Shown: positions 11,079 through 60,395, counted from the first letter of the stretch. The stretch: 64,000 bases of DNA from Mobula hypostoma (GCF_963921235.1 NC_086097.1:147872001-147936000); one strand, 5' to 3'. Notes: a model not told the origin generated them from the sequence alone. Numbers and translations are program-made.

Positions 11079-13700
11079 GCCTTCCTGATTTATTTCTTAA
11101 GTGTTCTCGTACATTTCTTATACTCCATAAGCACCTCATTTGTTCCTACTTGCCTATCCCTGCTATGCACCTCCTTTTTTCTCTTAACCAGGGCCTCAAT
11201 GTCTCTTGAAAACCAAAGTTTCCTACACTTGTTTATCTTTTATTCTTACAGGCACATGCAATCTTTGTACTCTCAAAATTTTGTTTTTGAAGTCCTCCCA
11301 CTTTTCAAGTACTCCTTTGCCAGAAAACAGCCTGTTCCTATCCACACTTGCCAGATCATTTCTGATAACCGCAGAATTGGCCTTTCTGTAATTTAGAATC
11401 TCAGACCAGACCAGACCTATGATTTTGCATATTTACTTTGAAACTAATGGCATTATGCTCACTGGATGCAAAGTGTCCCCCTACACAAACTTCTGTCACC
11501 TGCCCTGTCTTATTCCCTAATAGCAGAACAAGTATCACAAGAGGGGCAGGACTGGCAGCTCAGTATTTCGGTGTTCCATTGTTTTAGATGGGACAGAACA
11601 GGAGCTATACATACTGATTAAGGAAACTTTTCTGAACACATGACAAACTCCATTTCATCTAGTCCCACTCAATATGTTGGAAAGTTAAAATCACCTACTA
11701 TAACAGCTGAATCACAAGCAAAATCTGTAGATGCTGGAAATCCAAGCAACACACAAAATGCTGGAGGAACTGAGCAGACCAGGTAGCATCTATGGAAAAG
11801 AGTATATTCAACGTTTTGGGACAAGACCCTTCATCAGGATGTCTTGATGAAGGGTCTGGGCCCGAAACATTGACTACTCTTTTCATCCCATTCCAGCATT
11901 TTGTGTGTGATTCTATAACAGCCTTATCTTTCTTGAAAAAGTCTGCAATCTCTTTACAAATTTGTTCCTCTAAATCCCTTGGAGTTTTGGATAGGCAGTA
12001 ATATAGCCCCATTAACGTGGTTATACCTTTCTTATTTCTCAGTTCCATCCATAACGCCACATTAGTCGAGTTCTCCAGTATGTCCTGACAAAGTACTGCC
12101 ATGACATTTTCCCTGACTAGTAACGCCATCCCTCCTGCTCTGTCACATCTAAAACGATGGAACCCCGGAATATTGACCTGCCAGTCCAGCCCCTCCTCCA
12201 ACCAAGTCTCATTAATAGCTGCAATGTCATAATTCGAGGTGTTGATCCAAACCCTGAGCTCATCTGCCTTTCCTGTGATACTTCTTGCATTGAAACATGT
12301 GCAGCTCAGGACATTAGTTGCACGAGTCTCAACCTTTTGATTCCTCACTTTGTCTGAGGTCTTACGAGTGTCTGCCTCCACAACCTCTCCACTACCTTGC
12401 TGGCACTCTGGTTCCCAAACCCTGCAACTTTAATTTAAACCCCACCATATAGCATTAACAAACCTTTCTACTAGGATATTAGTCCCCCTCCAGTTCAAGT
12501 ACAAACCATCCCTTCTGTACAGGTCCCACTTTCCCTGGAAGAAAGCCCAATGATCCAAAAAAATCATAGCCCCTCCCCCCCCCCATCCTACAACTCTTAC
12601 CACGTGTTAAACTGTATAATCTTCCTAGTTTTTGGCCTCACTAGCACGTGGCACGGGTAGCAATCCTGAAATCGCAACCGTGGAGGTCCTGCCTTTTAAC
12701 TTAGCACCTAACTCCCTGAGCTCCCTTTGTAGAGCCTCGCCACTCGTTCTACCCATGTCATTCGTACCTATATGATCGCAACCTCCGACTGTTCACCCTC
12801 CCACTTCTAGAATGCTGAGGACTTGATCCGACATTTTCAGAACCCTGGCACCTGGGGGTGGGGGGAGAGGCAACATGCCATCCAGGAATTTTATTCTTGC
12901 CCAGAACCTGTTGTCAGTTCCCTTAACTAATGAATCCACTATCTCCACAGCACACCTCTTCTGCCCCCTTTCCATCAGAGTCACAAAGGCAGACTCAGTA
13001 CCAGAGACCTGATCACTGTGACTTTCCTCTGTTAGGTCATCCCCCAAAGTGGTAATACCTGTTGTTGAGGGGGATGATCACAGGAGTACTCTGCACTGGC
13101 TGTTTAACCCCTTTCCCCCGACAGACTAGCACCCAGTTTCCCGTGTCCTGCCTCTCTGTATGTCCTGTGTATGATCCTTTCAGCCTCCCAAATGATCCAG
13201 AGTTCATCCAGTTCCAGCTCCAACTCCTTAATGCTGATCATTAGAAGCTGCAGCTGGATGCACTTATCGCAGTTGCAGTCATCAGGGACACTGGAGATCT
13301 TCCTGCCTTCCCACATGAGGAGCTTTTAACTATCCTGCCTGGCAACTCTACTGTCCTAACTGAGCAGATATAATGAAGGGAAGGAAAAAAAAAACAAAAC
13401 CTAGAGCTTTTCTTCGTTTTGCTTTCATTGACTGAGGTCTGTCTTCGCTGAAGCCTTGAAGAGCTAAAGCCTCAAGATCAACACTCTAACTCTGTCCACT
13501 CTGACACTGGCCATAGCACTTGCCCCTGCCTTCCTTTAATTTGCTCTTGCTAATCAATCCCAGAAGCTGATTGGTCACTGGTCAGAGCTGAATTGTGTTA
13601 CCGAGATCCGCCGTTGCTTTTTTCTGCTGGGTCAGTGGACCTGAGTGACATCGCCTCCTGTTAAACTTCTGATGTCCTGATTGGTCACTGGTCAGAGCTC
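11079..13700 (-). mobile_element. CR1 LINE 5' half: 5' UTR, ORF1 (zinc finger/coiled coil, esterase-like) and APE endonuclease
   Basis: ORF 13104-13316 (CxC..CxxC, ELELELDEL), ORF 12793-13047 (IVDSLVKG), ORF 11698-12381 (FNARSI..INETWL..RCDR..GGMALL). A 23-bp 5' UTR duplication ctgattggtcactggtcagagct is present. Confidence 0.88.
11708..11912. mobile_element. Short fold-back Penelope-derived element with two back-to-back hammerhead motifs, inserted in CR1
   Basis: Perfect 10-bp TSD ctataacagc at 11698-11707 and 11913-11922. Central gacccttcatcaggatgtcttgatgaagggtc inverted junction. Confidence 0.85.
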
Positions 13701-14004
13701 AATTACCTTGTGATCATAATGTGCACAAAGTTGTTGGTATCCAATTAAGACTTTAATTTGATTCCTCTCACTATGACTTGCTGACATCTTTAAAGACCAA
13801 CTGATTCTTACTTTCTACTCCACCTTCACCCCAGTTCTTTCACAGCCTTTATTATTGTTTTATTATATATCTTCTTTCTGTTTTCCATTAGTTTTCTTTA
13901 TACCATTTTCAACCATATGTCTTTCATTACTATCTTTAAATATCACTTTATCTTTTTACATGGAACTTAGATTTTCTGGTACTCTCAATAAATTGTTTCA
14001 ATAA

Positions 14005-14190
14005 TCCTTGAGAATCTTGAGGAGAGGAACTAAGCTCAAGCAGCATCTGTGGATGAAAGGAATTGTTGATGTTTCGGGACAAAACCCTGCATCATTTCCT
14101 GATGTAGGATCTCAACCTAAAACTGGAAGTTTCTGTCCTCCCAAAAATGTTTCTCAACGTATTGACTTACTCCAGCAGATTGTTTATTAC
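14005..14190. mobile_element. Degenerate Penelope pseudo-LTR fold-back element
   Basis: gaggaactaagc..cagcatctg..gtttcggga..ccctgcatca / cctgatgtagg.. arms. Confidence 0.55.
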
Positions 14191-14282
14191 TTTCCATTAT
14201 CCCCATTTATTTTAATTATGAGTGGCTTAGAAATGTATACCACACTGGGATATGAACCATGAAGATGCACAGGTAATTTCAG

Positions 14283-14520
14283 GTGTGGCACAGTAGCGTA
14301 GTGGTAAGCATTAACACTATTACAGCACCAGTCACTTGAGTGTAATTCTGCCTCTGTCTTAAAGGAGTTTGTATGTTCTTCCTGTGACCAAGTGGATTTC
14401 CTCAGGATGTTCTGGTTTAGTTGATTAATTGGTTACATGAATGTAATTTGGTGGTGCAGGCTTATTGAATTGTTGGAGCCTGTTACTGTGTTGTATCTCT
14501 AAATAACAAAATAAAATAAA
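14283..14520 (+). mobile_element. tRNA-derived SINE
   Basis: A-box-like gtagcgtagtggt head, conserved body and ctgtgttgtatctctaaat(aaaat)n tail. Confidence 0.7.
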
Positions 14521-14691
14521 GAATGATTATCACACACTTTTTCATATAACTTCTAAAGTTCAATATCACCAACTTTCTGAAATGGCGAGAACCTGCTTTT
14601 CTCATTCCTGTAAGGCATTTGGGATGTTGCTTGTAAATATAAATTGTTATTGACCAATGGGTATCCATAAATGGCCACATTAATTTATAAC

Positions 14692-16295: not shown

Positions 16296-17644
16296 CAAAA
16301 TCAAGCACTATCAAATTTCAGGTAGCGTTTCTTTGTATATTGTATAAACTAGGTGCAAGATCACAAAATCTCATCCATTTTTTCGAATAGAATTGCTGAT
16401 TATATTTAAGAAATTAATCAATAGATTAATGGGGTTAATGCAGGAAAGTGGTGCTGAGGTAAAAGAATCTTCATCACATTGAAACCCAGAGAAGGCCCAA
16501 GTAACTGAATGGCCAACTCCTGCTTCTGTAGTTTATGATGAGGTTCTTGTTCGTTCCTGCTTATTTAGTTTTACGAATTTACTCCATTAATGGAATCCAA
16601 TACATCCTATGCCTTAATTTACTTATTTTAATTCAAACTTTAAAAATGTTACAGATTCACACCTTAATATTGTCTCATTCTAAAATTAATGAACACTTAC
16701 ATGTATGTAACAGATGGACAAATAGGATTAATTGCCTGTACAATTCTGTTCTTTCTAATCTTGTTTAATAATTTACAATAATTTTGTAAGTTGATTAGTC
16801 AAGGGGTAATTCAAATAATCTATTCCATTGTTTGCAGAAATGGAGCCATGCTTGCAGTTAATAAATGTAACATAGCTGACTCTCTATCCTATAAATCTAG
16901 ATTCCAATCTCCCCGCACCCCCCCCCCCATCATTATTCGTTTCTTTTGGTTACTTTTTTAAAATTTTCAGTCCAAATTTCATTTTGGCCAGCTACAAAGT
17001 CCCTCTGAAGGTGACAGATACTTTGTTGTAGAGGACTAATGATAAATCACAAACTCATTTTCTTTCAGTTGCTTGTACATAGCTAAGTATGAATCAGTTT
17101 TCACTGCCACTTCAGGCACTGTATTATAGGTCATAACTTTTCATTGTGTGGAGGAAAATCATCCATTTGACTCCTTAGTTCTTACCCCAGTCACCTTAAG
17201 TACCTACAAGCTGGTTTTCAAATTGTCCACCAAAAGAAACGATTTGTCTGGATACTTAATGATTTTAAAAAGGGTAAAATTTGATCTGAATTTGCTGATG
17301 TCTAAGGTCTATGACACAAACTTTTACAGTGAAGTCCCTGATTCAACCATTCCACTAAATCCTTCCTAAAGTGCAGTCACCAAATTTGATAATGCTCCAT
17401 ATGACCTATCTAATAATTTTTATAGGATTAGCAAAGTGTTGCTATTATTCATAGACTGTGCCTCTATACAAAGACCGAGATGCTTTTGTTAGACACTGTT
17501 TTTACAACCTGACCTCTGATTTCTAAAGGTTGGTGCAATACAGAGAGCATAGACTTATGACATTTCTATTTTCTTTTGTATGCCACTTCTTAATTTCTTA
17601 TTAAACATAACCGCTTCACGTCTCTGAATTAAGTGTGTCTTCAC

Positions 17645-18040: not shown

Positions 18041-18044
18041 AATA

Positions 18045-22178: not shown

Positions 22179-23713
22179 AACAGCAATCACTGAATGAAAA
22201 TAGACAAAGTCAAAGCTGAGTTTATTGATATATGCAGAGGTACATGTGTTACAGGTACAATGAAAATTTTGCTAACAGCAGCATCACAGGCAGATAGCAT
22301 CAGTAAAGCAGCATTGATGAAGTATCAATTAAACATTTTTCTAAGAACTCAATTAGAGCAAGAAAATTATTAGACTTGTTTAGCATGGGAAAGAGATATC
22401 GTGCTGATATTCTTGTTATCCTTATGTATTTAACTTTGCTTTGAGAGATCTGATCTTTCCCCACTCACTTACTAACTGACGAAAGACGTTCATCTGCTTG
22501 GCTTTCGTGCTTCCATTTCACGTGCTAATTTTTGTTCCACCCATTTTTGTGACCTTTGTATTAAGGGAAGAAGTGCCTTTGTCTCCCTGGCCTTATCGGA
22601 TTCTAGGCCCACTTTTGGGTTCCCATTTTCCTTTTCATTTGCAGATTAATAATGATTTGTTGCCAATGAAAGAGTGTTATTTAAATAGATACTGTCCAGT
22701 TAACAAACATAGTATAATTTCCATAAAATCCAAGCCACCCAAGTTTCCCAATATTGGGAGGATTTTAAAATTGATGTCCTTTATAGCTGAAGAAGTGGAA
22801 CTCATCGTTGGTGTTTTTTTTGTAGTTTCTGCACTTTTAAAATATTTTCATATATATTGATTATATTGTACATGCATGTAACAGGCATATTAATGTTATA
22901 TTTTTGTAAGAGCTAGCAAGAAGCTTTGTGATAGTAAGCAACAGGCATTCTTCAGAAAGTCACAATCTTTCCTATTTTTTATCCTTCATAAATATGAAAT
23001 GTGCTATGGTCAATTAGCTCTGAAACCCAAATGTTACCCCTAACTCTGTATCTTGCCACCCGAATCTGCACTTTTGGTGGTTGAAAAAGATAAATGGAGG
23101 CCAGAAAAAAATGATAGTAATATGCTGCAGAATGCAATAGCCAGTGGTTTAATTTGTGGTTAGTCTGTCTGTTCAGATTGTACACTGTGAAGTAGTCAGC
23201 AATAAATTGGCAAGATATTTGATTTAACAACAAGGGAACTGGGACTGGAAAAATAAGACCTTTAAGTCATTTCACCAAGTTCAAAAATATAGATATAATC
23301 TCAACATTAACTACATTAATAGTAGCCGAAGCTGAGTTAAGAGAGCCATAAAGTATTGGCTAGAAAAATAGAAATTATATCCATCTCTCCTGCATGCACG
23401 TAATTTCCACACCCATCAAGAAATTCACTTGTACATATTACTGCCAGTGTTATGAGGCTGAACTAGCTGGGTTGATCTGTATGTTTTACATTATGGTAAC
23501 AGCAATCACAGAAGCTAGACCTAATAATTTGTGTCTACTTTACCAGGCACCTTAAGAATTAGCTTAATCAGTTTTAGTGATTCAATATTGATTTAAACAG
23601 GATATGAAATTGAAGGTAATTGCTCCAACATAGTAATAAAGTGCTTAATTTTTAGCAACATGCATAACCCACTGGAGGAACTGAGCAGGTTGGGCAGCAT
23701 CCATGGAAACGAA

Positions 23714-23751
23714 CAGTCAACGTTTCGAGCCGAGACCCTTCGTCAGGACTG
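23714..23751 (-). ncRNA. Minimal type I hammerhead ribozyme motif (intact core)
   Basis: Minus strand reads CAGUC-CUGACGA-A-GGGU(CUCG)GCUC-GAAA-CG-UU-GACUG: stem I CAGUC/GACUG, CUGANGA and GAAA cores, stem II, and a loopless palindromic stem III (AACGUU). Confidence 0.75.
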
Positions 23752-24308
23752 AAGAGGGAGGGGGCAGTGGCCTTATAAAGAAGGTGGGGAGAGGGTGGGA
23801 AGGAGAAGGCTGGTAGGTGCCAGGTGAAAAACCAGTAAGGGGAAAGATCAAGGGGTGAGAGAGGAGATAGGCAGGAAAGGTGAAGAAGGAATCGGGGAAA
23901 GCACAATGGGTAGTAGAAGGAGGCAGAACCATGAGGGAGGTGATAGGCAGCTGGAGGAGGAGGCAGAGTGAAACTGGGTTGGGGGAAGGGAGGGGGAGGG
24001 AATTACCGGAAGTTGGAGAATTCGGTGTTCATGCCAAGGGGAGGGAGACTACCCAGACGGTATATGAGGTGTTGCTCCTCCAACCTGAGTTGGGCCTCAT
24101 CATGGCAGTAGAGGAGGCCATTTATGGACATATCCGAATGGGACTGTGAAGCAGAGTTGAAGTGGGTGGCAACCCGGGAGATCCTGTCTGTTGTGGCGGA
24201 CAGAGTGGAGGTGCTTGACGAAGCCAGGTTTTTCACCTGGCACCTACCAGCCTTCTCCTTCCCACCCTCCCCCCACCTTCTTTATAGGGCCCCTGCCCCC
24301 TCCCTCTT

Positions 24309-24346
24309 CAGTCCTGACGAAGGGTCTCGGCCCGAAAGGTTGACTG
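24309..24346 (+). ncRNA. Minimal type I hammerhead ribozyme motif (stem III mutated)
   Basis: CAGUC-CUGACGA-A-GGGU(CUCG)GCCC-GAAA-GG-UU-GACUG. A C>G change breaks the AACGUU palindrome. Confidence 0.65.
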
Positions 24347-25269
24347 TTCGTTTCCACAGATGCTGCCCGACCTGCCAAGCTCCGCCAGCGTGTTGTGCAT
24401 GTTGCTTAATTTTTAGTACAGGTCTTGCCTAGTTTCCAGTTTCAATTTGGTTTTGTTCCCGTTTAGTCAAACACATTTATTGTAAGTGTATGTCTGTTTG
24501 ATGACTGATTTTTTTTCCCTGCTATTTGTTCTTTTCTCAATTCAATTTTGCTTTTTGTATTTTGATCAGGAAGCTTCTTGGATACTAAGGAGTTGAACTT
24601 AAATGTAGGATGATCATTGTTTTAATATTTTAAATTTTAAACTGTGAAATTGTCTCACTCCCTTGATTTTTTTCCAAATCCAGTAATCCCTCATGTAGAT
24701 TAAAGCAGGTTGGTAGTTTGTACAGTCTTTTAACATTGTCCCTCATGAATCTGAATTGACATGCTTGGGTATGAAACTCTTTTAGCTCTATTATCTTGCA
24801 TGTAATTTAATGTCTTTTTGTTTACTTGGTCAATTAACTCCAAAACCTGAGACAATAGTAAAGTGCATTAGGGTTACTTAATTACCTTATTACCTTCACT
24901 ATAAAATGCCTTTAATATCATTATTCCTTTCTTTATAGTGTACAACATGAACCTATATAAAGATTAGACGGTGAATTGCATTTAATGTAAAATTGATATT
25001 GTTTTTTTTTACTAATTAGTGTCACTACTCTGGTGTTTATTTTCTGTCCCTGTTACAGTGCAAGAGCACCTTAGGCACTTCACAGCCATTTTCAGATAAA
25101 CAGATCTACTGTACATCCTACAAATTGCATTTATGTAGTTCCTTACACATAATAAAACATGCCAGGGACGTTCTGCATTATTTTGCAGAATTTGATATGA
25201 AACACATGAGGAGACTGGTCAAGAATTGCATTTCAGCATGGTCTTAATAGCTGAAAGTAGGACAAGGGA

Positions 25270-25995
25270 CTTCGCAAAGGCATGGACGTCAGCGAGTTAG
25301 ACCGGCAGAAAGGATATAAAGGAAGGCAATTTTTTCCTTAGTGGTTTGATTGAGGCACGACTACACAAGTGAGTGGACGTCAGCAAGTTAGACCAGCAGG
25401 AAGGATATAAAAGAAGACAGTTTCTCATCAGTGGTTTGATCGACGCCCCAACTGTGCAAGCACGTGGATGTCAGTGAGTTAGACCGGTGGGAAGGATTTA
25501 AAAAGAAGACAGCTTTATAGAGTGGGCATTGGAATAGAGGGAAACAGAGTAGGAGGGCTTTGCTTCAACAGGGCTTCGGTGATAACGGGTCGAGGCAAGG
25601 TAAGTTACTTGTGAAGAGTAGGAATAGAAAGTATATCTGTGAGGCTGTGTCGAGGATCAGAGGAATCTTGGGGTCTGAGTCCATAGGACACTCAAAGCTG
25701 CTGCGCAGGTTAACACAAGAGGGCACAGTTTTAAAGTGTTTGGAAGTAGGTACAGAGGAGATGTCAGGGGCAAGTTCTTTTACGCTGAGGGTGGTGAGTG
25801 CGTGGAATGGGCTGCTGGCGACAGTGGTGGAGGCGGATACGATAGGGTGTTTTAAAAGACTCCTGGATAGGTATATGGAGCTTTTAAAAATAGAGGGCTA
25901 TGGGTAACCCTAGGTAATTTCTAAAGTAAGTATATGTTTGGCACGGCATCGTGGGCGGAAGGGCCTGTATTGTACTGTGGGGTTTCTATGTTTCT
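25270..25995 (+). mobile_element. Internally deleted CR1-derived element: tandem-monomer 5' region + short RT remnant + CR1 3' end
   Basis: 91-bp tandem units (tgga(c/t)gtcag at 25283, 25374, 25465), then gaggatcagaggaatcttgggg..aaagctgctgcgcagg (cf. 39635-39685) joined to the CR1 3' end with a tttctatgtttcta tail. Confidence 0.75.
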
Positions 25996-26309: not shown

Positions 26310-28231
26310 CAGGGGTCCCCAACCTTTTTTGCACAGCAGACCGGTTTAATATTGACAGTATTCTTGCAGACCATCCGGGGGGGCGCGGGAGTGGTGTTAA
26401 TCATGACCGGAATATAGGATATAGGTGTTAAGTCACTTATGAGTGGCTAATACACTCAATTTTGTTTCCAGAAGGGTTTATCTAACAAACTTAATATTAA
26501 GTACAGTGCATATTTTCCTCGCATGAATATAGTGATAAGTCAATTATAAGTCATAAGGGGGTTCCTTATGTCCAGTTTTTTCCACAATTTAGTTTTCATT
26601 GCATTCATTACAGAAAACTCCACTTCACAGAGATATGATGTTGGAAACGGAAGCAACATTTTCAGTGCTTTCGTGGCTATCTCAGGATGTTCAGCCTTGA
26701 CTTTGATCCAGAATGCCGGCAGAGATGTTATGTTAAACATACTTTTCAGCCCACCGTCATTTGCAAGCTCAAGGAGTTGATCTTCTTCCCGCGCTGACAT
26801 GGATGATTCACCGGGGGCATTCACAAATGGGTTACGGACCCATTCCTTTGCATGTCTTGGGTCATTTGCAGTTGGGAAATAACGCTCGAATTCTGTCGAC
26901 AGCGAAGATAGGTGTTCATGAACCAGCTGGGAGCCTCAGTCTGTCCCAGATTCGCAGCTAATGTTGGGAACATGTCAAATATGCCCCTGTCCACTTGCCG
27001 TCCCCACAGTTTCAGTTTGGCTGTGAAAGCAGACACTTTATCTGCCAACTTGAAGACAGTTGTCATTCTCCCCTGAAGTGACAAATTGAGTTCCTTGAGC
27101 AGGTTGAAGATGTCACACAGATAAGCAAGTTTTGCTATCCACTCCTCGTCACTGAAGTGTGCTTCCAGTGGTGACTTTTTTCCCAAAAGAAATCTCTGTA
27201 GCTGCTCTCTTAACTCAAAAACCCTGGCCAAGGCTCTCCCCCTTGACAGCCACCTGACTTCAATGTGTAAGAGAAGGTGTTTGTGCTCTGCATTCATTTC
27301 CTCGCAAAGCTGCTCAAACAGACGTGAGTTAAAGGCTTTTGCTTTGATGTGATCGATAACTTCAACAACTTCACTCAATACGCTATTAAGATCAGGTGAC
27401 ATTTTTCAGCTAGCCAACATTTCCCTGTGTGTGACAGTATGTAGACTGGCATTCAGGAGCAACCTCTTTGACTTGGGTAGTGAAACCAGATTCGTTAAGC
27501 CGTTCCAACAGCTGTGCTTGAATGTCCTCTGCTATGTCATCAATTCTCCTTGAAACTGTGGTAGCTGAAAGAGAAACCTGTGCCATCTTTTTAGCTGCAG
27601 CTTCTCCCAACAGTTCACAGCACATGTCCTTGGCAGCAGGCAGAATCAATTCTTCACCAACAGTGAAAGGCTTCTTAGCCTTAGCAATATGGCTAGCCAC
27701 TAAGTACGACGCTCTCAGAGCAGCAGCATTTGTGGAGGTGGTAGCTCTCAGCACTTGCTTCTGTCCCGCTTGCTCACGTTTTTTCCGCTCAGAAAACTCA
27801 ACGGGTTTGCCTTTAAGTGCAGGGTGCTTGGACTCAAGGTGCTGAGGCAGTTTTGAGGACTTCATTGCCTCATTAGACAGCTTGTCTCCACATATCACAC
27901 ACAGGGGGCTTGGAGTGTGTGAGTCGCCAGTCGCAATAAAGCCATATTTTATGTACGACTCGTATTTTCTGTTGAAGGAAGCTTTTTTTTTGCAGTCTCG
28001 GCTTCAGCTGTCTCTGCGTTATCATCATCGTTAGGCCATTTATGTCCCCTACCATTTCTTCCAAAGAAACTCTCAAGCGACATTTGTTTTTCACTCATCC
28101 AGTAGTTGTAGGTTAATGACCAACTGATCTCCTCGTGTGCGTTCAAGTTCAACGGTGGGCTTGACAGAGAATGAGGAAAGGTGCAGTTGACTCATATCGT
28201 TTCCGCGCGGCCCGGTGGTTGGGGACCACTG
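26310..28231 (-). mobile_element. hAT (Charlie/Buster, ZBED5/SCAND3-like) transposon with both ends; transposase frameshifted and internally deleted
   Basis: TIRs CAGGGGTCCCCAACC / GGTTGGGGACCACTG and a perfect 8-bp TSD agatagat at 26302-26309 and 28232-28239. BED finger CVICGDKLSNEAMK..HLESKHP, EVRWLSRG, LAYLCDIF and FPTSYLCE motifs. Confidence 0.95.
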
Positions 28232-28239
28232 AGATAGAT

Positions 28240-31635: not shown

Positions 31636-34069
31636 AATATCCCGCACTTCAACATCGAGAAAGTAAAATGCAAGAAATTTGAATATTCGTGATGGAGTTC
31701 TGTATTTATTTAGCACAGGGGAGAATTATGAGGTCGGGAGACAAGACTGCTCCCACAGTAAGAACAGAAGAATAACCCAGACACACAGCCAATCTTGTGA
31801 CCAATCGACAAAATTACCCTCTTAGAGGGATTGAAAACAGACTGGCAAATTCATTTGAACACTTCCAAGTAGTTTGCTCAGTGGACGCTGTGAGTGCTTT
31901 TTCTGTTTGGATTTAAAATCTCCATCATTTTATTTGTTATCTGGAGGTTTTTAAATTAGCTGAATATTGCTAGTTCAGGATACTCAAGACTAAAGTCAAT
32001 GAAAAAGATCTCAATGTTTTATTGAAGACCCAGCCTGTCATGACACACAGCCAACTGGATGTTAGGAGAAGGGATACTTGATCCATTTACCTATTTCCCA
32101 ATAAAAAAGTGCCACTTAAGTGCCATAACTGTCACAGACACATTGGCCAATCTGTCCCATTTTTTGTTAGCTGTTAATATTCAGAGAATGGATTTGTGCT
32201 TCTATACATGGCAGAGCTATCTTTATCTCCCCAAATTCAAAGCATAGTTCAGATCAAGTATGCTTTAAAAAGGGGTCTGCAGGAAGAACATGGAATTGTG
32301 GTGGCACTGGTGGAGGTCATTTGACCTCTTAGAGTAATTGCGTTGGTTACACTCTTGCAAAATTATTTTCCTTCTAGATCCCTATCCAATTCCCTCTTGA
32401 AACTTTTGGTTGACTCTTTCCAAAATCCTAACAAAATTTAGTTTTCGTCTTTTCCTACATCTTTTGCCCATTGCTTTAGATGTGTATCCTGGTCTTGAGA
32501 AGTCACTCACAAGAACAGCTATTCATTCTGTATCCTATCCAAATGTGACCAGATCATAAGACATAGGAGCAGAATTAGGCCACTCAGCTTGTCGAATGTG
32601 CTCCTCCATTCCATCACTCTCCTGCCTTTTTGTAACCTTTGAAGCTCTGACTAACCAAGAGCCTATCAAGCTCCACTTCAAATTTATTCAAGCACAGCAC
32701 TTTGTAGCAATGAATTTTACAGATTCAGCATCCTGCAGCTTAAGAAATCCATTCTTATTTCTGCTGTAAGTGAACGTACCTCAATTCTGAGACTGCCCTC
32801 TGTTTCTACATTCACTCAGTATAGGAAACAACCTGTACAACCACTCTTGTCTATGCCTTTCAATATTTGATAGGTTTCAGTGAGATTCCCCCTCTACTCC
32901 CCATTCTTCTAAACTCCAGCAAGTACAGCCCCAGAGACATCAAAAACTCCTGAGAAGTTAGCCCTTTCATTCCTGGGATCATTCCCGTGAACCTTCTGGA
33001 TCCTCTTGAATACCCACACTTTTTTTTCTTTGATAAGGGGTTCGAAATTGTTCACAATGCTCCAATTACAGTCTGACCATTGCCATATAAAGCCTCAGTA
33101 TTACATCCATACTTTTATGTTCTAGTCATCTCGAAATGAATGTTAACGTTGCATTGGCATTCCTCACCACCGACTCAACCTGCAAGTTAACTTTTAGGGA
33201 ATCCTGCACAAGGACTTCCAAGTGCCTTTGCACTTACTATTTTGGAATTTTTTTCCCCGTTTAGAAAATAGTCTGTGCCTTTATTCCTATTACCATAATG
33301 CATGACCGTACACTTCCCAACACTATATTCCATCTGCCACTTCTTTGCCCATTCTTCCAATCTGCCCAAGTCCTTCTGCAGACTCCCTGTTTCCTCAGCA
33401 CTGCCTGCCCCTCCACCCACCTTTGTATCGTCTGCAAACTTGAACACAAAGCCATCAATTCCCACATCCAAATCATTGACACATAATGTGAAAAAGTATG
33501 GTGCCAATACCAACCCCTGTGGAACACCATTTGTTGCTAGCAGCCAAACAGAACAGGCCCCCTTTATTCTGACGCTGCTTCCTGCCAGTCAGTCAATCTG
33601 TTATCCAGCTTCTTAAAATGAAATGGCAAGGTTGCTGTCCAATGCGCCACAAGGTGTGGAAAGAAATCTTTCCTGTAATACCATGAGCTCTTATCTTGTT
33701 AAGCAGCCTTATGTTTGTCATCTTTTCAAAGGCATGCCTACTGAAAATCCAAATAAACGACATCCACTCACTCTTCTTTGCCTATCCTGCCTGTTATTTC
33801 CTCAAAGAATTCCAACAGATTTGTCAGGCAAGATTTCCCCTCAAGCGAACAATGCTGACTTTGGCCTACTTTATCATGCACCTCCAAGAACTCCAAAACC
33901 TCATCCTTAATAATAGACTCCAACATCTTCGCAACCACTGAAATCGGGCTAACTGGTTTCCTTTCTTCTGCCTCCCTCTCTTAAAAGGTGGAGTGATATT
34001 TGTGATTTTCCATCCTCTGGAATCATTTCAGAATATAGTGACTCTTGAATGAACATTAATGCTTCCTCA

Positions 34070-34649: not shown

Positions 34650-34830
34650 TATGTTGTTATTTCTTTCCACACCTTGTGGCGCATTGGACAGCAACCTTGC
34701 CATTTCTTTTTAAGAAGCTGAGTTGCTAGCTCGACACTCAACCCAGCACAAATAGAAAGTATGCAAGGATTCGAACCCATGACCATTCACCTCGAAATCC
34801 GGTGCTGATGCCACTACACCACAGGCCAGC
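34650..34830 (-). mobile_element. tRNA-headed SINE (same head as 34070, different body)
   Basis: Minus strand gctggcctgtggtgtagtggcatcagcaccgga..gggttcgaatcc; body ends ggtgtggaaagaaataacaac. Confidence 0.8.
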
Positions 34831-41054: not shown

Positions 41055-41929
41055 GGAATCATGCGGCCAAAAAGTTCTATTCAGAAGGTTCAAAGGAACA
41101 TCAAAATAAGCTTGATGCATTTTGGACACAAGTCCTGTGGACTGATGAAGTTAAAATAGAACTTTTTGGCTGCAATGAGCAAAGATATGTTTGGAGAAAA
41201 AAGGGTGCAGAATTTCATGAAAAGAACACCTCTCCAACTGTTAAGCATGGGGTTGGATCAAACATGCTTTGGGCTTGTGTTGCAGCCAGTGGCACGGGGA
41301 ACATTTCCTGGTAAAGGGAAGAATGAATTCAATTAAATACCAGCAAATTCTGGAGGCAAACATCACACTGTCTGTAATAAAAAAAAAGCCGAAGGTGAAA
41401 AGAGGATGGCTTCTACAACAGGATAATGATCCTAAACACACCTCAAAATCCACAATGGACTACCTCAAGAGGCGCAAGCTGAAGGTTTTGCCATGGCCAT
41501 CACAATCCCCTGACCTAAACATCATCGAGAATCTGTGGATAGACCTCAAAAGAGCAGTGCATGCAAGATGGCCCAAGAATCTCACAGAACTAGAAGCCTT
41601 TTGCAAGGAAGAATAGGCCAAAATCCCCCAAACAAGAATTGAAAGACTCTTAGCTGGCTACAAAAAGCGTTTACAAGCTATGATACTTGCCAAAGGGGGT
41701 GTTACTAAGTACTGCCATGCAGGGTGCCCAAACTTTTGCTTCGAGCCCTTTTCCTTTTTTGTTATTTTGAAACTGTAAAAGATGGAAATAAAAAAGTTTT
41801 CTTAAAATATTAAGGAATGTGTCATCTTTAACTTTATGCCTTTTGGAAATCAGTTCATCTTTTACTCGCTTAGCTATTCACAGTAACAGAAATTTTGACC
41901 AGGGGTGCCCAAACTTTTGCATGCCACTG
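41055..41929 (+). mobile_element. Tc1-like (DD34E) transposon, 5'-truncated, with IR/DR-type right end
   Basis: VLWTDEVKIELF, PTVKHG, QQDNDPKH and WPSQSPDLNIIE (34 residues between D and E). Direct repeat gggtgcccaaacttttgc near 41722 and 41903; end ..gccactg followed by TA. Confidence 0.92.
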
Positions 41930-48560: not shown

Positions 48561-48648
48561 GTGGAGGGACAGCTAAGCTAATTCCATATCTTTATACTAA
48601 AACTACTTGATATAAAGGTTAACAATAGCTGCCCCTGTTTGTTGTTTG

Positions 48649-51285: not shown

Positions 51286-52744
51286 GTCCATGACCTAGAT
51301 CAACACATTGATGTTGTGTGGAGGCTTGCATGCTTCAAGGACTCTATCAGACGATGCCAACCCAGAGCTATCCATGTTAGAACAGGTGTGGACAAGATGG
51401 CTGATGAAGATTTGTCCACGCTTGCCCCTCCTGGGCCATGTCATAAGAAACAGCAGTTGCCTTCTTGAAGTGTACCTCATATATAACGAGGGATTAACAT
51501 ACTGTTGACCAGGGTTTAATATTGTGCATTCTTAAATTTGAGAATATTGACTGTTATTCTAAGTAGGTGTGATTAATTCAAAATTGTGATGTACATTAAG
51601 ACTCCTGAGTAAATTTGATCTTTTGGCCTACCTAGTTACAGTATAGTTACAGATCTTTTTTTTTTCAAAGCTACACAATTGAAAATACATTGTAACTTGG
51701 TACACGTGACAATAATAACAGCGGAAAACTTTGTTTTGCATACTATCCACACAGATAATTTAATTAAATCAGTGCTTTGCTTTACAATATTAGAAGGAAA
51801 AACAATAACAGAATGCAGAACAAAGTATTATAGTACAGGGTGGGTGGGGTCTTTGATTGTGCTGGCTGCTTACCAAACCTATTTCTTTTATTTTCTTATA
51901 TTGATTATCAGTTTGATTATGAGATGTTTGTTTATTGCATTATTGTACTTTTAAACCTTGGCATATGCTAAACCACCAGTGTCACTTAATTGGATTTCTC
52001 ATTGCAACCATCTCTAGCTATTTACTTCTTAATATGCAAACTAGCAGAATTATTTTACTACCTGAATAATCCATTATGCTTTCTTGTCAAACAACTTTAG
52101 AAATTTGTTAATATATAGTATAGGAAGTGATACACGTCATACATTAGTTGCATTAATGCGTGAATAATATATTTTGTTCCCTCTCAGTTCCACTTTTTAT
52201 CAAGAGCAGTCAATATTTTTTTCTTGGAATGGCATTTCCGCCCTGCTGTGAACCCCTATGGAATTTCCTTGACGTGCTCCATCAATCTGTCATATGCTAG
52301 AATTGGATCCTCAGCTACTTCATTCTTTGATATTAATGTCATCTCAGACAATTTCCCACATAGCTTCATTTGGACCATCCCATATAAATTTTATGCTTTT
52401 GTATTGAATATTTCTTTCAAAATGAACTGTTGTCAGCTTCATTAAGTGCCATAATAGGTTCCATATGTACATAATATCTTCTGCACGTTAGTTCCTCAAA
52501 AAAGTTGTTTAATCACAGGCCAAACACAATTATATTCTTTGCTAATTTTCATGCGGAGATGTTGACATAGTGGGCATTCACGAGTACTGACTGCCCACCT
52601 AGATAGTAAGTAGTTGCATGTAATTCAACCATGAGTCAACCAATCACATATGAATTGATTTTCAAATCTTCTGTTCCAGTGGAGACATGCTGACGGTGCC
52701 TTCAAAATAATAAAGTATTTGTTTGATGATATTGGTTGAGGTTT

Positions 52745-53037: not shown

Positions 53038-53505
53038 ATGGTTTAAATCTTAGCCAAAACTTCTGGTTGAGATCTTTACAAGTGGAAGTGCACTCAATTT
53101 AATATCTCATGTGACAGATGGTACCTTGACAGAGTTCTACTCCCTTAAGATTACCATGAACTTTGATCCTGAATAGTCCTCTGCCTATAGGTTGAGGCTT
53201 AAACATGCAAACGTTTGACACTGATGAGAAACACTGATCAAAGGTTGTTACCTTAAAGGACAACACTAACCTTTTGCCTTCAACTAACCAAACTTCTAAC
53301 TATATTTTTCTCTACGGTTAAGGTGCTCAGTTTACTATCTGATTGAGTCTTTACCGAATGCTGCCTAAGAACTGTTGCATATTCCTACCTTGCAAATGAA
53401 TTTTCTAGTTGATTCTGTTTATAACTGTATCAATTTATATTGGTTTATTCCCTTACATGAGATTAGTTGTAGCTCTAATTTATTCGGGATTAAAGGTTTC
53501 TTGTT

Positions 53506-53628
53506 CACGCTGGAGGAACTCAGCAGGTCAGGCAGCATCCGTGAAAAAAGACGGGTTGACGTTTCGGACCAGAACCCTTCGTCAGCACTGAGACTTTGAC
53601 CCCAGCATCTGCAGATTATTTTGTGTTT
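53506..53628. mobile_element. Short Penelope pseudo-LTR-derived element with a minus-strand hammerhead core
   Basis: Perfect 13-bp TSD aaggtttcttgtt at 53493-53505 and 53629-53641. Minus strand CUGACGA-A-GGGU(UCUG)GUCC-GAAA-CG-UC. Confidence 0.82.
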
Positions 53629-54428
53629 AAGGTTTCTTGTTACTGGAGCCATTGTTTCTTCTCAGTTCCACTTTTCATTCATATCAGTCAATATCTTTTT
53701 CTTGGAAATGCATTTGTGCCCTGCACCTCTATGGAATTTTCTTGACATCCTCTTCAGTGTTAGAATAATGTGGGATTTCGATCCAAAATTTTGATAGCTC
53801 ATCTCCCCCACTGACACTGCTTGACCCACTGAGTTCCTCCAAGAGATTTGTTAGTTGTTTGTGTAAGTTTTGCTGTTTTATGTTTAGTACATTGACTGTT
53901 TGTCATGGTTGACTAGTACACAATGTCATCACTCTACAATTGATTAATACAATTGAAAATATACTACTAACCTTAAAATTAAAGATACTTAGAAAAAGTT
54001 GTTCTTCTGACTTCTCCCAAGCAACTTCTCACCGATCTAGTGCAAGCTAAAGGATGCACTGCAATGGCATTGATGCGGCAGAAAATGAAATTTCCTGATT
54101 ATCCCACACTGTCAAAATTTAGTTAGTTTACCAGGAATTGCACTTTATTGCATTCAAATATGCCACCAGGTCTTCCTTTCCCTAGGCCTAGTTGAAGGAT
54201 GGCTAATTGAGTGGATGAACTTACCTGGATTCCTCATTACCACTCCAGGCAGCATGGCTGGCAGGGATTACACTGGATGAGGAGAGCTTAAGTGAACATT
54301 GTCTGCGCTGTTTGGGGATGGTGGAGAGGAGAAGGTGGCTTGGCATAATTGAATATGGTAACTGGTTGTATATAGGTTAAAAAGATGTAGACTACTGAGT
54401 TGTGGAGAAGCCAAGGATTTAAATGGTA

Positions 54429-56640
54429 CTAGACAATGGGGTGACCCGTTGGGGCACCCTTTGAGAGAAAAGTAGTGCAGACTGACGTGACCAGAATGAA
54501 CATTAGATTTCCCTGAATGCTCTTGCTATCGCTTTGCTTTGGAAGTTAAAGAAGAAAAACTCAGTTTATTAAAGAAGAAAAACGCATAGCAAAACAAATA
54601 TAGCTCCTCGTTTATCAAAGGACACTTTTGATGACAACATTTCTGGTTGATCTGCCACCCTTCACGAATAAATACTGTAACGTTTTCATTTCTTTTTCCC
54701 TAGTTTAAAGCCACATACAGCTGACCATGCTGGAATACTGGTTTCTTCAGATAAATCAACACATTCTCCATGGTTTGGCCTTGTGCCTCATGTATAGTCA
54801 TAGCAAAGCATGACTGTATCAGGAACTGGCTCCGCTGAAGAGGGACATCTTCCCCTTTTGCTAAACTGATAGTAATTCTTGGGATCATGACAATGTCATT
54901 TTTGAACGCACCAATGTTTATCTTGGCTATGATGAGACTGTCGTGCAGTTCTTCCACCATCATTCGCGTTCCATTGCAAAGCTTTGGTGGATCCAAGTTC
55001 CTCAATGAAATGATGGGAGATCCCCTCTTCAATTCCAGTTTATGTGGTGACAATCCAGAGAGTTCGACTGAATCAAGGAATTCTGTTGGAAAATGAGTGG
55101 CTTTAGCTCCTTAACTTACGGCACTGAAGGAACAGTATTCTTTCATGATTCCAGGGAAGCGACTAATGTTTTTTCACATCATTTCATTGAGAGGAACCAA
55201 AATAGAATTCCTGGAGAACAGTTCTGCTGGATTGTCGAATGTTGGGTAGATGAAATCAATACATTCTTCCATAGTTTTTGCTGGCAAAATCATATCTTCA
55301 GGTAATTCGATTTCATCGTTTTCATTTTTCTCAATCTTGTCTTCTCCAACATCCATTAAGAACTCAGAATATCGTTCTTCTCCCTCACTCAATGGCATGT
55401 TTCTCTTCAATTGAAACTTGATGATGCTTCTCCATAAGTAGGATTTTTTATGCATGAATTCTCCATATCAGCATCATTTCCTCCTCGTTTCACAACTGCT
55501 AGAAACTGACGGAAATTGTCACAGCAAATGGTTAAAATACTCCCGAAGGCCTCATTCTTGCCTCATATATAATGAAGAGCCCGGTCCACGGCTTCGAAGC
55601 TCTCCCTCCTCCTAATCATGGGGCACTCATCCCAGACAATAAGCCTCGCATTTCGGAGTAAATTTGCAGTATCAGTGTTTTTATCGATGTTACAAAGTGC
55701 ATCCTCATTGACTTTGAGGGGCATCTTGAATCTTGAATGCGCTATCCTACAACCAGGCATCAATGTTGCTACAATACTGGATGATGCTACAGCAATAGCA
55801 GCACCTCCATCTCCCCTAATTTTAGCGAGGATCAAGTTGATGATAAATATCCCCATTCCTCCTGGTGCATCAATGAAAATCATTGAAGAGAGATTCCTTT
55901 CCAAGAGTCACACACATATTCATATACTTCTTTTTGCTCATTATTCAATAGGTGCTCCTTCTGTGAAACAAATTCCTGCTGTTTGTCTGTGTTGTATTGC
56001 AGTTCATGCAAAAATTCCAGATTGCCAGCACCTTGAGTAATTGTACCGTTTCTCGGTGTCCGCAAGTTATATTCTTCAAGTGTTTTGCCCAAGTTCTTAA
56101 GTTTCTCTTGGAAATACAGAAGAGTTTGTCCATGATGCCTCTCATTGATCATGATATTAGGATCATTGATAGTTCTCTTCATTGGTAAGAAATCTTCAGA
56201 CATTGCATTCTTGAACCGGTTCCGTAATTGTTGTGGATTGTTGATTTCAGTGTTTGTTAGCAAGACGACAAACAAATCTCTCATTGCTGTGGGCATTTTT
56301 GTTCTCTCTGCCTCTTTCATAGTTTGCTACCAATGATCATCAGCTTGCAACAACCCTCTCTCTCTGCAGACGTCTTTGAATGATGGAAGGATATCATGTG
56401 TTTTCAAATGATTCGAAAGATACTGGCCCCTTTATGTGATGAAGAAGTCGTCTCAAATAGTAGAGGTCACCACTTCGTGGAGAAACAGTAAACACTCGAC
56501 CCAGAACATTTGCTTCAGAAATCCCAGAGTAGTCCTCCACTCTTTTCCCCATTTTCCTTCTTTCCCATCTCTTATTAGTCCAAGTGTGGAATCTGGGAAT
56601 AGGGTGTTTCGAAGTACTTCATTACAATAAGACTTAAATA
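54429..56640 (-). mobile_element. Helitron (Pif1-like helicase region, pseudogenised) with canonical 3' end
   Basis: Helicase motifs FIDAPGG, AVASS..AHSRFK, IVWDECPM, LRNLDPPKLCNGTR, FAMTI..QGQT, HGQLYVAL, plus LYYLRRLLHH upstream. The minus-strand 3' hairpin gggtgcccc-aac-gggtcaccc is followed by CTAG|T at 54429. 5' end not located. Confidence 0.92.
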
Positions 56641-56868
56641 TCTCTTACTGATGGGTCGCAGTTTGATCTGTCCCAATCCTGCATATGCTGATGGTGATTA
56701 GCAGAATGTGACCGCTCAAAATAGAGCTGCCCTGCCCTTTTGCTGCAGTTGGTGTCGCTGCTGTGAGCATCGTAGTTCATTGCCAGTTCAATCCATATTG
56801 CCGTGGGAGTGCCATCCAATGGTCACCCTTTGACGAGGTAGTCCAAGTTTGCATTTAACAATGCAAAG

Positions 56869-57733
56869 TGTTACATACCTCAAGGAGATCTTGTGCCTTT
56901 CTTGTGAGAATGATGTAATGGTCTTTTGGAGGTCACCTGTTGTAATTTTCCCGCCGAGGTGAGATCACGTAATGACATGTTCACCACGGGTATAAAAGGG
57001 AAGACCTCTGGTGACGCAGTTAGTCTTCCGGCTAGAACGTTCATCACTGTCTCTGTTTTGTTGTCTATTTGTTTTATGACGCAGTTTCATTTTTAAAACG
57101 GAGTGTTACGTTCTGTTGCAAGGTACAATAGTACTGGACTGGCAATTTGCTAGATTTGTTGATGTACTTTTTCAGTAGTATTGGAGAGTGAAGACTTTAA
57201 CAAAGTACATGACATGAAGGATTAAGAGAAGTTGGTATCGTTTGGCAGTTTAACAAAGGATTGACCTTATTGAGTCTTCGTTGAAGAAGTAGCGACCTGC
57301 ATCGAAGATAACTCCTGCCGAAAGAGAAAGGAAGTTCATGCAAGGTTTGCTTTCTAGAAGAAATTAAGGTCAGTTGTTTTAAGCCGTTTATTTCCTTCCT
57401 CATGAATCCTTTGGACAGAACCAGCAGGAAAGTCGCGTCTATGAAGAAATCCTTCTGCAGAGAAGTCTCTCCCAATTGAATGTTTAAATCTGTTGGACTT
57501 TCAAATTTACCATTTTAAGAACTGTATTTTGACTTTACTGCTTTAAGAACTGTTTTCACATTTATCGCTTTAAAAATCAGTACCGAGTGATGATTTGTTG
57601 AACAGCTGCATAGCGGTTAACTCCCGGTTAAGGTTTTCGTTTGTTTTTTATTGTTTATCCGTGTTTAGTAAATGTTTGGTTGTTCTTATATAACCTGACT
57701 CGATTGATATTCATTGTTGCCGGTTACGTAACA
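56869..57733 (+). mobile_element. Solo LTR (865 bp)
   Basis: TGTTACAT...ACGTAACA inverted termini, 4-bp TSD aaag at 56865-56868 and 57734-57737, TATA-like gggtataaaagg near 56990, AGTAAA near 57667. Confidence 0.8.
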
Positions 57734-58203
57734 AAAGGAGTATTGCTCAGGACTAGTATCATCCCAAGAATGACACGAATAGCGGTGGTTGGTTTGTCTT
57801 CATAATTGTTGAGAATTGCACATAAATCATCAGAAAAGTAATTATACAGCACTAAAATAATAGCCTAAAACCCCAAGAAGTGCAACTACTGTAACTTTAA
57901 ACTAGAAATAGTCAATGATGGAAATGCTCAGGGTGCATTTGTAGAAATAGAAACAGAGTTAATGTTGCATGTCAATGCCCTTTCATTGGAACCTGATATA
58001 AATTAGAAATCAAATGTATTTGCTTTCTATTTATATCTTTTATGATGACAGTCAATGAAAAAGGATTAAAGACCCATAAGTAATCAAATAAATAAAGCAT
58101 AAATTTGAAACTACTGGAGGTAATTTTAGCAGAAACTAGCTTTTCACCAGAGTCTCGTCCTATTTCCTGATTTGATGAGGTTCTCTTCTTTCTTTTCTTG
58201 CAG

Positions 58204-58388
58204 GTCACTCCTGCTGAACCGAGCCAGACTGAGCAGTAGTTACAGGTTCCTTCAGCAGAGATGGAAAACAAAAGGCATGCGATGTATTGGGGGAGTGTTG
58301 TATCGTGTATCTGCCAACAAACTTGCAAAAAGCAGTTCTGTTCCCATCAGAACTGGAGTCACAAATGCAAGGAGTACTGTGAAATCAG
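58204..58388 (+). CDS. ZC3H3: Next internal coding exon of ZC3H3 (185 bp, phase 2 in, phase 1 out)
   Basis: Strong polypyrimidine tract ttctcttctttcttttcttgcag and donor CAG|gtaaaa. Peptide SLLLNRARLSSSYRFLQQRWKTKGMRCIGGVLYRVSANKLAKSS carries the ZC3H3 'KGxRCIGGVLYxVSANKL' motif that precedes the CCCH fingers. Confidence 0.93.
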
Positions 58389-58649
58389 GTAAAATGACCA
58401 ATTGTGTTGAAATGATCGATGTAAGGGACGTCTGAGTTTCAATCCCAAAATGAGCATTGCATTTCATCAAGAGTCATAAAGATTTGGCCCACCAGATCCA
58501 CACTGTTTAATGGGCAATCATTTCCAGTTTCGTCCATAGCATTCTAGGCTTTGGGTAGGTTCTGTACTCATCTAGACACAACATAATTGTTGTCAGCAAC
58601 TCTGCTTCCACCACTTTCTCTGAGACAGTGAATTCCAGATACTCATAAA

Positions 58650-59155
58650 GATGCCTGTCTATGTTAATCCCTTTTTGCCTGCATATGGCCTTATGCCCCT
58701 AATCCCTTCCTATCCATGTACTTGTTGAAGTGTTGTTTTAATTATAATTTTATTTACCTTTACCACCTCCTCTGGCAATTGCATCCACATACCCACCATT
58801 TTCTGAATGGGAAAAAGTTACCTCTGAGATCCACTTTAAATCTTTTGACTTTAAAGTTGTGCTTTCCAGTTTTAAACTTGCATATACTGGAGAAAAAAAA
58901 CGTGTGACTATCAATGCTATCTATGCCTCTTGCAATTATATAAATCTCTATAGGGTTACCCCTAAGCTTCTTCCATTCTAGGAAAAGTAGTCACTGCCTA
59001 TCCAATTTCTTATTATAACTTAAGCTGACCAGTCCAGGAAACACGCATATGAATCTTTTTTGCACCCACTTCAGCGCACTAGCATCCATGGTGACCAGAA
59101 TTGCACTCAAAGCTCCATATACAGTCTCACCAATGTTCTGCACAGCTGCAACATG
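58650..59155 (-). mobile_element. CR1 LINE 3' part
   Basis: Homologous to 2400-2830 (ggtgaccagaattgcac..ctcca; ALKWVQKRF). Confidence 0.7.
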
Positions 59156-59789
59156 ATGCCTGACAGGCATACGCAATGCTGCAAATTAGAAAGGGCAAAC
59201 ATTGAATACCAACCCTTAAGCATGACATATATAACAAAAGGACAAACATTAATAATTTTTAAAAAGTGAATTTGTTCCTCATGTTGTATTGCTTTTTACA
59301 AATTTTCACAGTCCCTCTTTTTAAGAGTGGTGTAAGTTCATGAGAGTGACACTGGTACTGACCCTGCCCTTGTGAGAAAGAGCAATTAATAGTTGATGAT
59401 ACACATTTGGCTTTGGTTTTGAGCTCTTTGCTGAGACTTAAAAAAACGATCAGAGCAATCTGATGTTTGTTGGTATAAGATATATTTATAGTGAGGCGCA
59501 TAATGTAGGAGGTGTCTAATGTATTAAGTTGATGTGGTACATGGGTACAATCTCGCATCATATTGTAATTACCAAAAGCTTTGTTTCTTTTAAAACCTTT
59601 CTGAAGCTTTTGTGCAATCATGTGACAGATAATTATTGAATGCGCAGCTATGCAATGATTGTTTGCAAACTCCCTTCACTTCATCTGTTACCTTTATCAA
59701 ATGTGATTTCTTTTTCCCACATGTAACACGTGTAGCTTGTCAGATCATGATGATTAGGATATTCTTAAAATCTTTCTCCATTGAAAGAC

Positions 59790-60395
59790 AAGAAAAGAAT
59801 GGTCTTCAGGCATGTCACAGGTAGACAAGGTGGTGAAGGAGGTATCTGACCTGCCGCTTTTCATCAGTGAGGATACGGAGTTTAGAAGTTGAGAGGTAAT
59901 GTTGCAGTTGTACAAGATGTTGGTGAGATCACAAACGGGTATAATGTATAGCTTTGGTTACCCTTTCATAGGAAGGATGTTAGTAAATAGAAAGTGCATA
60001 AAGAAGATTTACAAGAATCTTGACAGGACTCAGGGGTCTGTTACAGGGAGAAGAAGGGCAGACTAAGACTTACTTCCTTGTACAATATCAATATTTAAAA
60101 CACAAAATACTCTGCAGATGCTGGGGTCAAAGCAACATTCACAACACGCTGGAGGAACTCAGCAGGTCGGGCAGCATCCGTGGAACTGATCAGTCGATGT
60201 TTCGGGCTGGAACCTGACGAAAGTTCCCAACCTGCTGAGTTCCTCCAGCATGTTGTGAGTGTCAATATTTAAAAGATATGTCCCAAAGGATAAAAGATAC
60301 GTTACAAATGTGGGCCAAGTGGACTAAATTAGATGGGCATCTTGATACATATGGATGAGTTGGACAGTTGGGCCAGAGGGCCTTTTTCCAGCGGT
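59790..60395 (+). mobile_element. Old CR1 3' fragment hosting a Penelope-derived insertion
   Basis: gaggtaatgttgcagttgtacaagatgttggtgag.. and CR1 3' UTR remnants. Confidence 0.6.
60101..60261. mobile_element. Short fold-back Penelope-derived element
   Basis: Perfect 13-bp TSD tcaatatttaaaa at 60088-60100 and 60262-60274. Arms ctggaggaactcagcagg / cctgctgagttcctccag, with partial hammerhead cores. Confidence 0.85.

Follow-up and report, generated by a model that had tools for sequence, protein, structure and literature searches.

Short head-to-head pseudo-LTR insertions in a ray genome as probable minimal products of Penelope-like element integration

Insertions, target duplications and arms

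We analyzed a 64,000-nucleotide stretch of Mobula hypostoma DNA (GCF_963921235.1 NC_086097.1:147872001-147936000), here called the window, whose positions are used throughout. It harbors 10 loci built from the pseudo-long terminal repeat (pLTR) of what appears to be a Penelope-like element (PLE). Nine of the 10 are short (~110-220 bp), non-coding and composed of pLTR alone, and the tenth is a longer sibling (23656-24402, 747 bp), missing from a preliminary description of the same stretch. That description had named three elements, at 11708, 53506, and 60101, flanked by perfect direct repeats, and we found these repeats exactly where it had placed them (10, 13, and 13 bp, flanking inserts of 205, 123, and 161 bp; Table 1). 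Its probable older case, at 1035-1254, also held up, with an 11-bp duplication containing one mismatch, and the longer sibling has a 14-bp duplication and inverted arms of 193 bp (90%). Random 70x70 boxes drawn from the window, up to 1500 of them, served as a null for the duplications: exact repeats reached ≥10 bp in 2.0% of the boxes and ≥13 bp in none. In the null for the 1035 case, a repeat with at most one mismatch in 10 occurred in 2.25%. At the five decayed loci, the duplication search gave nothing better than chance. The lengths at the other 5/10 loci are variable (10, 11, 13, 13, and 14 bp), and the AT content of the duplications (60 to 92%, compared to 60% for the window) shows a mild bias.

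A profile built from the pLTR arms was run on the window and on the reversed window. It detected 17 arms at the 10 loci, plus one 28-nt match at E 0.15, and gave 0 matches on the reversed window. The arms were found head to head, with the 3' ends of the element facing outward, in all seven loci with two profile-detected arms, and tandem (head-to-tail) units were seen at 0/10 loci in the window. The earlier portrayal of the elements as head-to-head pLTR pieces does not hold for 53506, the two parts of which share no sequence. Arms were likewise found at the decayed relatives that had been listed, but the one at 53770 is a single arm, the second arm at 8315 amounts to a 10-nt stub, and none of the five has a duplication above chance.

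Measured from a common anchor, long arm ends lie 47 to 52 nt past it and short ends 11 to 15 nt, with one at 3. The long end exceeds the short end by 35 to 41 nt at 1035, 11708, and 60101, and a 36-nt tail occupies 53593-53628 in the 53506 unit; this difference matches the optional "tail" of PLEs. Long and short ends are paired at 1035, 7030, 11708, and 60101, and no locus pairs two long ends. Insertion units of endonuclease-positive PLEs have been described as a 5'-truncated copy with an adjacent inverted pLTR, an optional tail of 30 to 40 bp and a duplication of 8 to 10 bp (PMC3846280, PMC8557442). Our loci resemble such units in their head-to-head arms, tail at one end, variable duplication, palindromic junction and GIY-YIG open reading frame (ORF) in the sibling, and the overall insertion architecture is one already known for PLEs. 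The differences are that 9/10 loci here are pLTR only, that the duplications measure 10 to 14 bp and that the junctions cluster at the 5' edge of a hammerhead motif.

Miniature inverted-repeat transposable elements (MITEs), i.e., DNA transposons with terminal inverted repeats, are also short, non-coding and palindromic, with direct repeats at their flanks. We looked for duplications of fixed length and for constant ends and found neither, in agreement with the preliminary description, which had argued against a DNA MITE. The unequal ends differ both within and between elements, and in the sibling the arms are PLE pLTRs joined to a GIY-YIG ORF. Because the duplication length varies and the ends are unequal, a DNA MITE is hardly credible and we exclude it.

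A coding sibling and a hammerhead motif

At 23656-24402, the same arms, with outward ends of the short type, surround a fragment of a GIY-YIG endonuclease. The peptide encoded on the minus strand matched 7/30 candidate proteins, all seven from rays (71 to 88% identity). A GIY-YIG match was obtained in 3/3 scanned ray homologs at E values of 0.0005 to 0.002, below the Pfam cut-off, and a Pfam scan of the 65-amino-acid window fragment itself gave no match. Reverse transcriptase (RT) motifs and a Cys-rich linker were seen by eye in the homologs only, RT being absent from the window and the linker from the fragment. This linker is given as a mark of Neptune and Nematis PLEs (PMC8557442), and the element probably belongs to the Neptune clade. 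Because the coding sibling holds GIY-YIG sequence between the same arms, we take the arms of the short loci, linked to it by homology, to be the 3' pLTR of an endonuclease-bearing PLE. Since a sibling with the same outward ends carries an endonuclease fragment, the short elements are most likely the small end of ordinary 5'-truncated, inverted PLE insertions, and the family cannot be called non-coding, as it had been.

This PLE family is very abundant in these ray-like genomes, and so is its coding part: contigs from 4/4 runs (four organisms) matched the 927 bp of 23300-24226, with 7,768 to 36,017 contigs per run, pLTR and ORF alike. Contig depth in the hammerhead bin was 2.1 to 4.8x that of the next bin upstream, and the ORF bins varied equally; such depth is not copy number and was left unused. 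Among 15 of 120 contig joints, two were strand changes inside the ORF. Contigs of organism B share the left junction of the 23656 insertion, at which organisms D and E had no coverage, and no orthologous empty site was seen among these contigs. Pattern scans for further copies gave 0 and 0 in viral contigs and 0 in prokaryote genomes, and 21 metagenome pattern loci were rejected as chance, their match to the window spanning only 20 to 28 bases. Four ray proteins (P0001, P0002, P0006, and P0007: ATP synthase C3-like, DIPK1C, VKORC1L1, and ABHD14A isoforms) contain the PLE endonuclease piece and are either gene models that absorbed PLE sequence or cases of exonization.

Positions in the arms are given relative to the initial C of the hammerhead core, with the predicted cut at +27/+28. 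The descriptor of the minimal type-I hammerhead passed in 3/17 arms (2201, 23751, and 24309) and in none of the 11708, 53506, and 60101 elements, the other arms being decayed. An Rfam search of the window at E values up to 5 returned three matches, all below the gathering score and none of them a hammerhead. Folding energies of eight arm or ribozyme stretches were no better than those of shuffles (z of -1.64 to +0.64), and pair covariation on alignment A1 was not above shuffles (126 of 500). Since both remain at shuffle level, we identify the hammerhead by the descriptor and by the literature; the preliminary description, which had spoken of hammerhead elements, is borne out for three arms but not for its three named elements, nor by any Rfam hammerhead family. 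The minimal PLE hammerheads reported in PMC4209133 share with ours a type-I core in which helix II is preceded by one additional base and helix III is nearly absent; according to that account, PLE hammerheads occur as pairs 100 to 700 bp apart on opposite strands, and scattered motifs are related to truncated PLEs. Our copies, which are predicted motifs, differ in that most are mutated in the core or helix I. Minimal PLE hammerheads cleave weakly and as dimers, per the summary in PMC6765202.

A template cut by the ribozyme, be it a short RNA from hammerhead self-cleavage, as the preliminary description had suggested, or a retrozyme monomer or circle, would accord with the presence of minimal motifs and with 7030-7190, which folds back at about +31/+35 and is the sole locus where both arms begin close to the predicted cut. 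However, 15/17 arms extend upstream across this cut, which contradicts a template cut by the ribozyme at all loci with the possible exception of 7030. Moreover, the ends do not fit a cut-to-cut monomer, tandem units are missing from the window, and ribozyme mutants of an anole PLE insert normally in the experiments of PMC11167929. We regard such a template as very improbable.

Non-LTR retrozymes, as presented in bioRxiv 10.64898/2026.07.22.740005, are head-to-tail tandems with a type-I hammerhead in each unit. They are comparable to our loci in being non-coding and derived from PLE pLTRs, and they were reported in one chondrichthyan; in contrast, the loci here are inverted or single (0/10 tandem) and lack the defining feature. 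LTR retrozymes, with a type-III hammerhead in direct LTRs and a 4-bp duplication (bioRxiv 10.64898/2026.07.22.740005), were ruled out by the type-I motif, the inverted arms and the duplications of 10 to 14 bp. The former label of a "retrozyme/MITE-like family" does not suit elements with no tandems, unequal ends, differing centers and a coding sibling of the same design. For annotation, such abundant short palindromes in ray-like genomes are to be assigned to truncated Penelope-like insertions and not to MITEs or retrozymes.

Two contig joints lead from the hammerhead 5' edge to just past its 3' edge (23750->23713 in run X17, kind not given, and 23751->23716 in run X1, listed as going back 36 bases). 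These joints reflect either bare-ribozyme tandems or helix-I snap-back elsewhere in these genomes. The queried stretch was present in 17 runs, 0/17 of which were recorded as RNA in this DNA-directed search.

Centers of the elements and routes of formation

The preliminary description had stated that junctions differ between copies, and indeed no center is common to any two of the nine junctions in the window (those of decayed loci were read by eye; approximate 5' limits of the arms are in Table 1). The farther-reaching arm stops at -8 to 0 in 7/9 junction-defined loci, the single arm at 53750 being excluded. With one uniform and two geometric nulls built for this analysis, the clustering had P ≤2e-7 after correction for 53 windows, and 1e-5 for 6/9 when one locus was dropped. 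The stop coincides with the 5' strand of helix I. At -6 to -1 are a pyrimidine tract and CAG, which precede this spot, and an initiator-like word that overlaps it, judged by the general initiator and splice-acceptor consensus. Because no first-exon sequence was seen at the centers among the loci here, we read the arm boundary as an RNA 5' end, which the clustering suggests to lie at about helix I.

The origin of inverted pLTRs and tails in PLEs has been stated to be unresolved (PMC8557442, PMC3846280), and of PLE integration, the priming step alone has been reconstituted (PMC11167929). In that in vitro system, both strands of AT-rich DNA are nicked and then extended by the PAc protein (Poseidon, green anole), which uses uncut RNA as its template and begins reverse transcription at either of two internal sites, the tail being defined by these two sites. 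Our loci would be alike in having two start zones, both internal and 3' of the hammerhead, an AT-rich target, an uncut RNA and extension of both strands. They differ in clade, Neptune being inferred here, and in their palindromic minimal products, which the available part of PMC11167929 does not describe.

We propose that the short loci are dead-on-arrival minimal PLE insertions, in which both nicked strands primed on uncut pLTR RNA, ran off and were joined head to head, and we put the probability of this reading at roughly 0.55. Each nicked target strand would prime its own complementary DNA (cDNA) at one of the two start zones. The bound RNA would be the 5' leader of the transcript, beginning at about helix I, such that both cDNAs would run off after 90 to 135 nt; their ends would then be joined, with a few bases trimmed, into a head-to-head palindrome inside the target duplication. 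Priming at the downstream pLTR of a read-through transcript would carry synthesis on into the 3' untranslated region and the ORF, as may have happened at 23656-24402. At 53506, both primings could have taken place on one RNA molecule, the tail-primed strand halting at the second start. The internal deletions in two right arms (11708 and 60101) would probably be later palindrome decay.

The 53506 unit is not a fold-back: it consists of an arm and a non-overlapping, inverted tail, as double priming predicts, and the first base of its tail is the one next to where the left arm of the sibling has its short end. In L1 twin priming, two primers on one RNA generate an inverted, non-duplicated 5' part, L1 priming at the poly(A) end. 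The non-duplicated inverted parts of 53506 are alike; unlike in L1, both starts are internal here and most loci duplicate the arm. The fuller version of our proposal, in which the stumps record the minimal PLE reaction, their centers map the RNA 5' end to helix I and units such as 53506 arise by twin priming, is tentative and falls somewhat short of even odds.

Several points weigh against double priming from an RNA that begins at helix I. The helix-I stop also looks like a splice acceptor; in Drosophila virilis, the Penelope intron ends at helix I (PMC4209133), and that intron, 75 bp long, begins 46 bp after the Penelope start site (PMC2377424). There are only 10 loci, five of them decayed, events are taken to be independent in the clustering test, and the RNA 5' end is deduced solely from the clustering that it explains. 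At one locus, 7030-7190, the fold-back lies close to the cut site. Independent priming would permit long/long elements, of which none was seen, and partner arms are not nearest neighbors in the three most decayed two-arm loci. Finally, deletion of the right arm from a former fold-back could also account for 53506, internal deletions being present in the right arms of 11708 and 60101.

Some of these points suit self-priming, whereby the end of a single cDNA (or of an antisense template) would fold back and prime its own copying, endonuclease resolution leaving the tail on one end. Self-priming has been put forward to explain head-to-head PLE structures whose junctions are palindromic (PMC3846280), and the tail has been attributed to endonuclease resolution (PMC8557442). 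The near-symmetric centers at 1035, 8318, 11708, and 14020, with spacers of 0 to 2 nt, and the long/short pairing, never long/long, agree with this route, and one X17 contig joins -4 to +33, as helix-I snap-back would, the kind of joint not being given. In opposition, snap-back at helix I predicts centers at -5/+33, which were found at 0/9 loci, the parts of 53506 have no sequence in common, and both strands were extended from RNA in vitro (PMC11167929). On balance, we consider self-priming the main rival of our proposal but rather unlikely.

Whether by double priming or self-priming, the palindromes would form at each integration; the remaining possibility is a non-autonomous palindromic hammerhead retroposon, i.e., a master fold-back whose transcripts PLE proteins would copy in trans. 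That 9/10 loci are short and non-coding and that the centers cluster would fit a master element; rotifer pLTRs suffice for mobilization in trans (PMC3846280), and non-autonomous PLEs are reported in Chlamydomonas (PMC8557442). Yet no two centers are identical, the coding sibling has the same ends, and arms follow subfamily within the element in 4/7 two-arm loci, where the partner arms are reciprocal nearest neighbors (p-distance 0.11 to 0.23). Given this pairing at such distances, at least three separate origins would be required, and none of these copies is recent. We thus judge a master element improbable; some self-propagating, non-autonomous copies may nevertheless exist. Formation anew at each integration is favored by the sequence comparisons because the centers differ, partner arms pair and the coding sibling has the same design, and PLE stumps made de novo, by the double-priming or the self-priming route, seem highly probable to us. 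The preliminary description had already put forward a pLTR-PLE origin, target-primed insertion and building of the palindromes at integration, and our analysis supports it on these three points.

In the open-access literature (Repbase entries and subscription papers were outside this scope), we found no description of the minimal palindromic class or of clustering at helix I. That most stumps stop at the front edge of the ribozyme motif is the point of interest that these data suggest, and its mechanistic interest is modest. If many natural minimal products with readable centers were compared, they could decide between double priming and self-priming and could reveal if the end of the template is ever set by the ribozyme in vivo. 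If the stumps are run-off records, the abundant copies would make the origin of inverted pLTRs and tails testable by sequence census alone.

Host sites and neighboring sequence

The 11708 element is located inside the endonuclease gene (Pfam Exo_endo_phos) of a long interspersed nuclear element (LINE), which we take to be a CR1. With one copy of the duplication, the endonuclease frame reads on into a GDFN-type motif, and with two copies it does not; the site collapses to one copy by reading frame, and 11708 is a true insertion. The left flank of 60101 matches LINE paralogs within the window, against which one-copy and two-copy flanks score nearly the same (219.5 and 219.0). The claim that two elements interrupt CR1 copies is thereby secured for 11708 by its reading frame, but for 60101 it extends to a LINE flank with near-equal scores.

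Table 1. PLE-related features of the window. Limits are approximate and follow the arm numbering used in the text.
Feature	Position	Strand	5' limits of arms	Remarks
Old head-to-head pLTR stump	1035..1254	.	-3/+1	Long-tail arm left, short arm right
11-bp duplication of 1035 stump	1024-1034 and 1255-1265			One mismatch
Decayed head-to-head stump	2095..2270	.	+20/-8	Right arm with descriptor-positive hammerhead 2201-2238; no duplication found
Decayed head-to-head stump	7030..7190	.	+31/+35	Both arms start by predicted cut; no duplication found
Decayed long-tail arm (minus) and 10-nt stub of second arm	8318..8431	.	0/-2	Weak
Left 10-bp target duplication	11698..11707	+
Fold-back stump in LINE endonuclease gene (presumably CR1-type)	11708..11912	.	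-2/-3	Symmetric center; long-tail arm 11708-11840 (minus), short arm 11841-11912 (plus) with internal deletion
Right 10-bp target duplication	11913..11922	+
Decayed fold-back stump	14020..14190	.	+1/-2	2-nt spacer; no duplication better than chance
Longer sibling	23656..24402	-	-480/-87	5'-truncated PLE 3' end (to -480) and inverted pLTR copy (to -87); both ends short type
14-bp duplication of 23656 sibling	23642-23655 and 24403-24416
Minimal type-I hammerhead motif	23714..23751	-		Predicted cut between 23719 and 23718; pyrimidine tract, CAG and initiator-like word ahead of motif
PLE GIY-YIG endonuclease C-terminal piece	24006..24222	-		One frameshift near 24173
Second minimal hammerhead motif, inverted arm	24309..24346	+
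Left 13-bp target duplication	53493..53505	+
Non-overlapping inverted unit	53506..53628	.	-8	Antisense arm +79 to -8 (53506-53592), then tail alone from ~+92, sense (53593-53628)
Right 13-bp target duplication	53629..53641	+
Decayed single pLTR arm	53750..53860	+	-11	No inverted partner, no duplication
Left 13-bp target duplication	60088..60100	+
Fold-back stump in decayed LINE 3' region	60101..60261	.	+9/0	Minus-strand long-tail arm reaching +9; plus-strand short arm starting at 0, internal deletion
Right 13-bp target duplication	60262..60274	+

An apparent left arm for the 53770 relative was rejected, as it is really a local host duplication of 52174-52279. This duplication of ~100 bp (80% identity) comprises 52174-52279 and 53652-53750, and its second copy separates the 53506 element from the 53750 arm. 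The LINE hosting 11708 contains a 64-bp inverted repeat (11541-11604 and 12132-12195, 87.5%), and a second inverted repeat, of 62 bp, has its copies 991 bp apart (33606-33667 and 34659-34720, 98%). Upstream of LINE-like sequence, 25283-25512 holds 2.5 tandem copies of a 91-bp unit.

Other mobile-element remnants were also noted. On the plus strand, 3145-3720 is an open frame of 191 amino acids with no Pfam match, which we presume to resemble the restriction-like endonuclease end of a non-LTR retrotransposon. On the minus strand, 54700-56326 contains fragments of a Pif1-type helicase (Pfam Pif1_2B_dom, E 3e-14), presumably from a decayed Helitron. DNA-transposase remnants comprise a DDE_3 match at 41245-41616 and two further stretches, 26540-28003 and 5469-5960, which by eye we take to be hAT-like.

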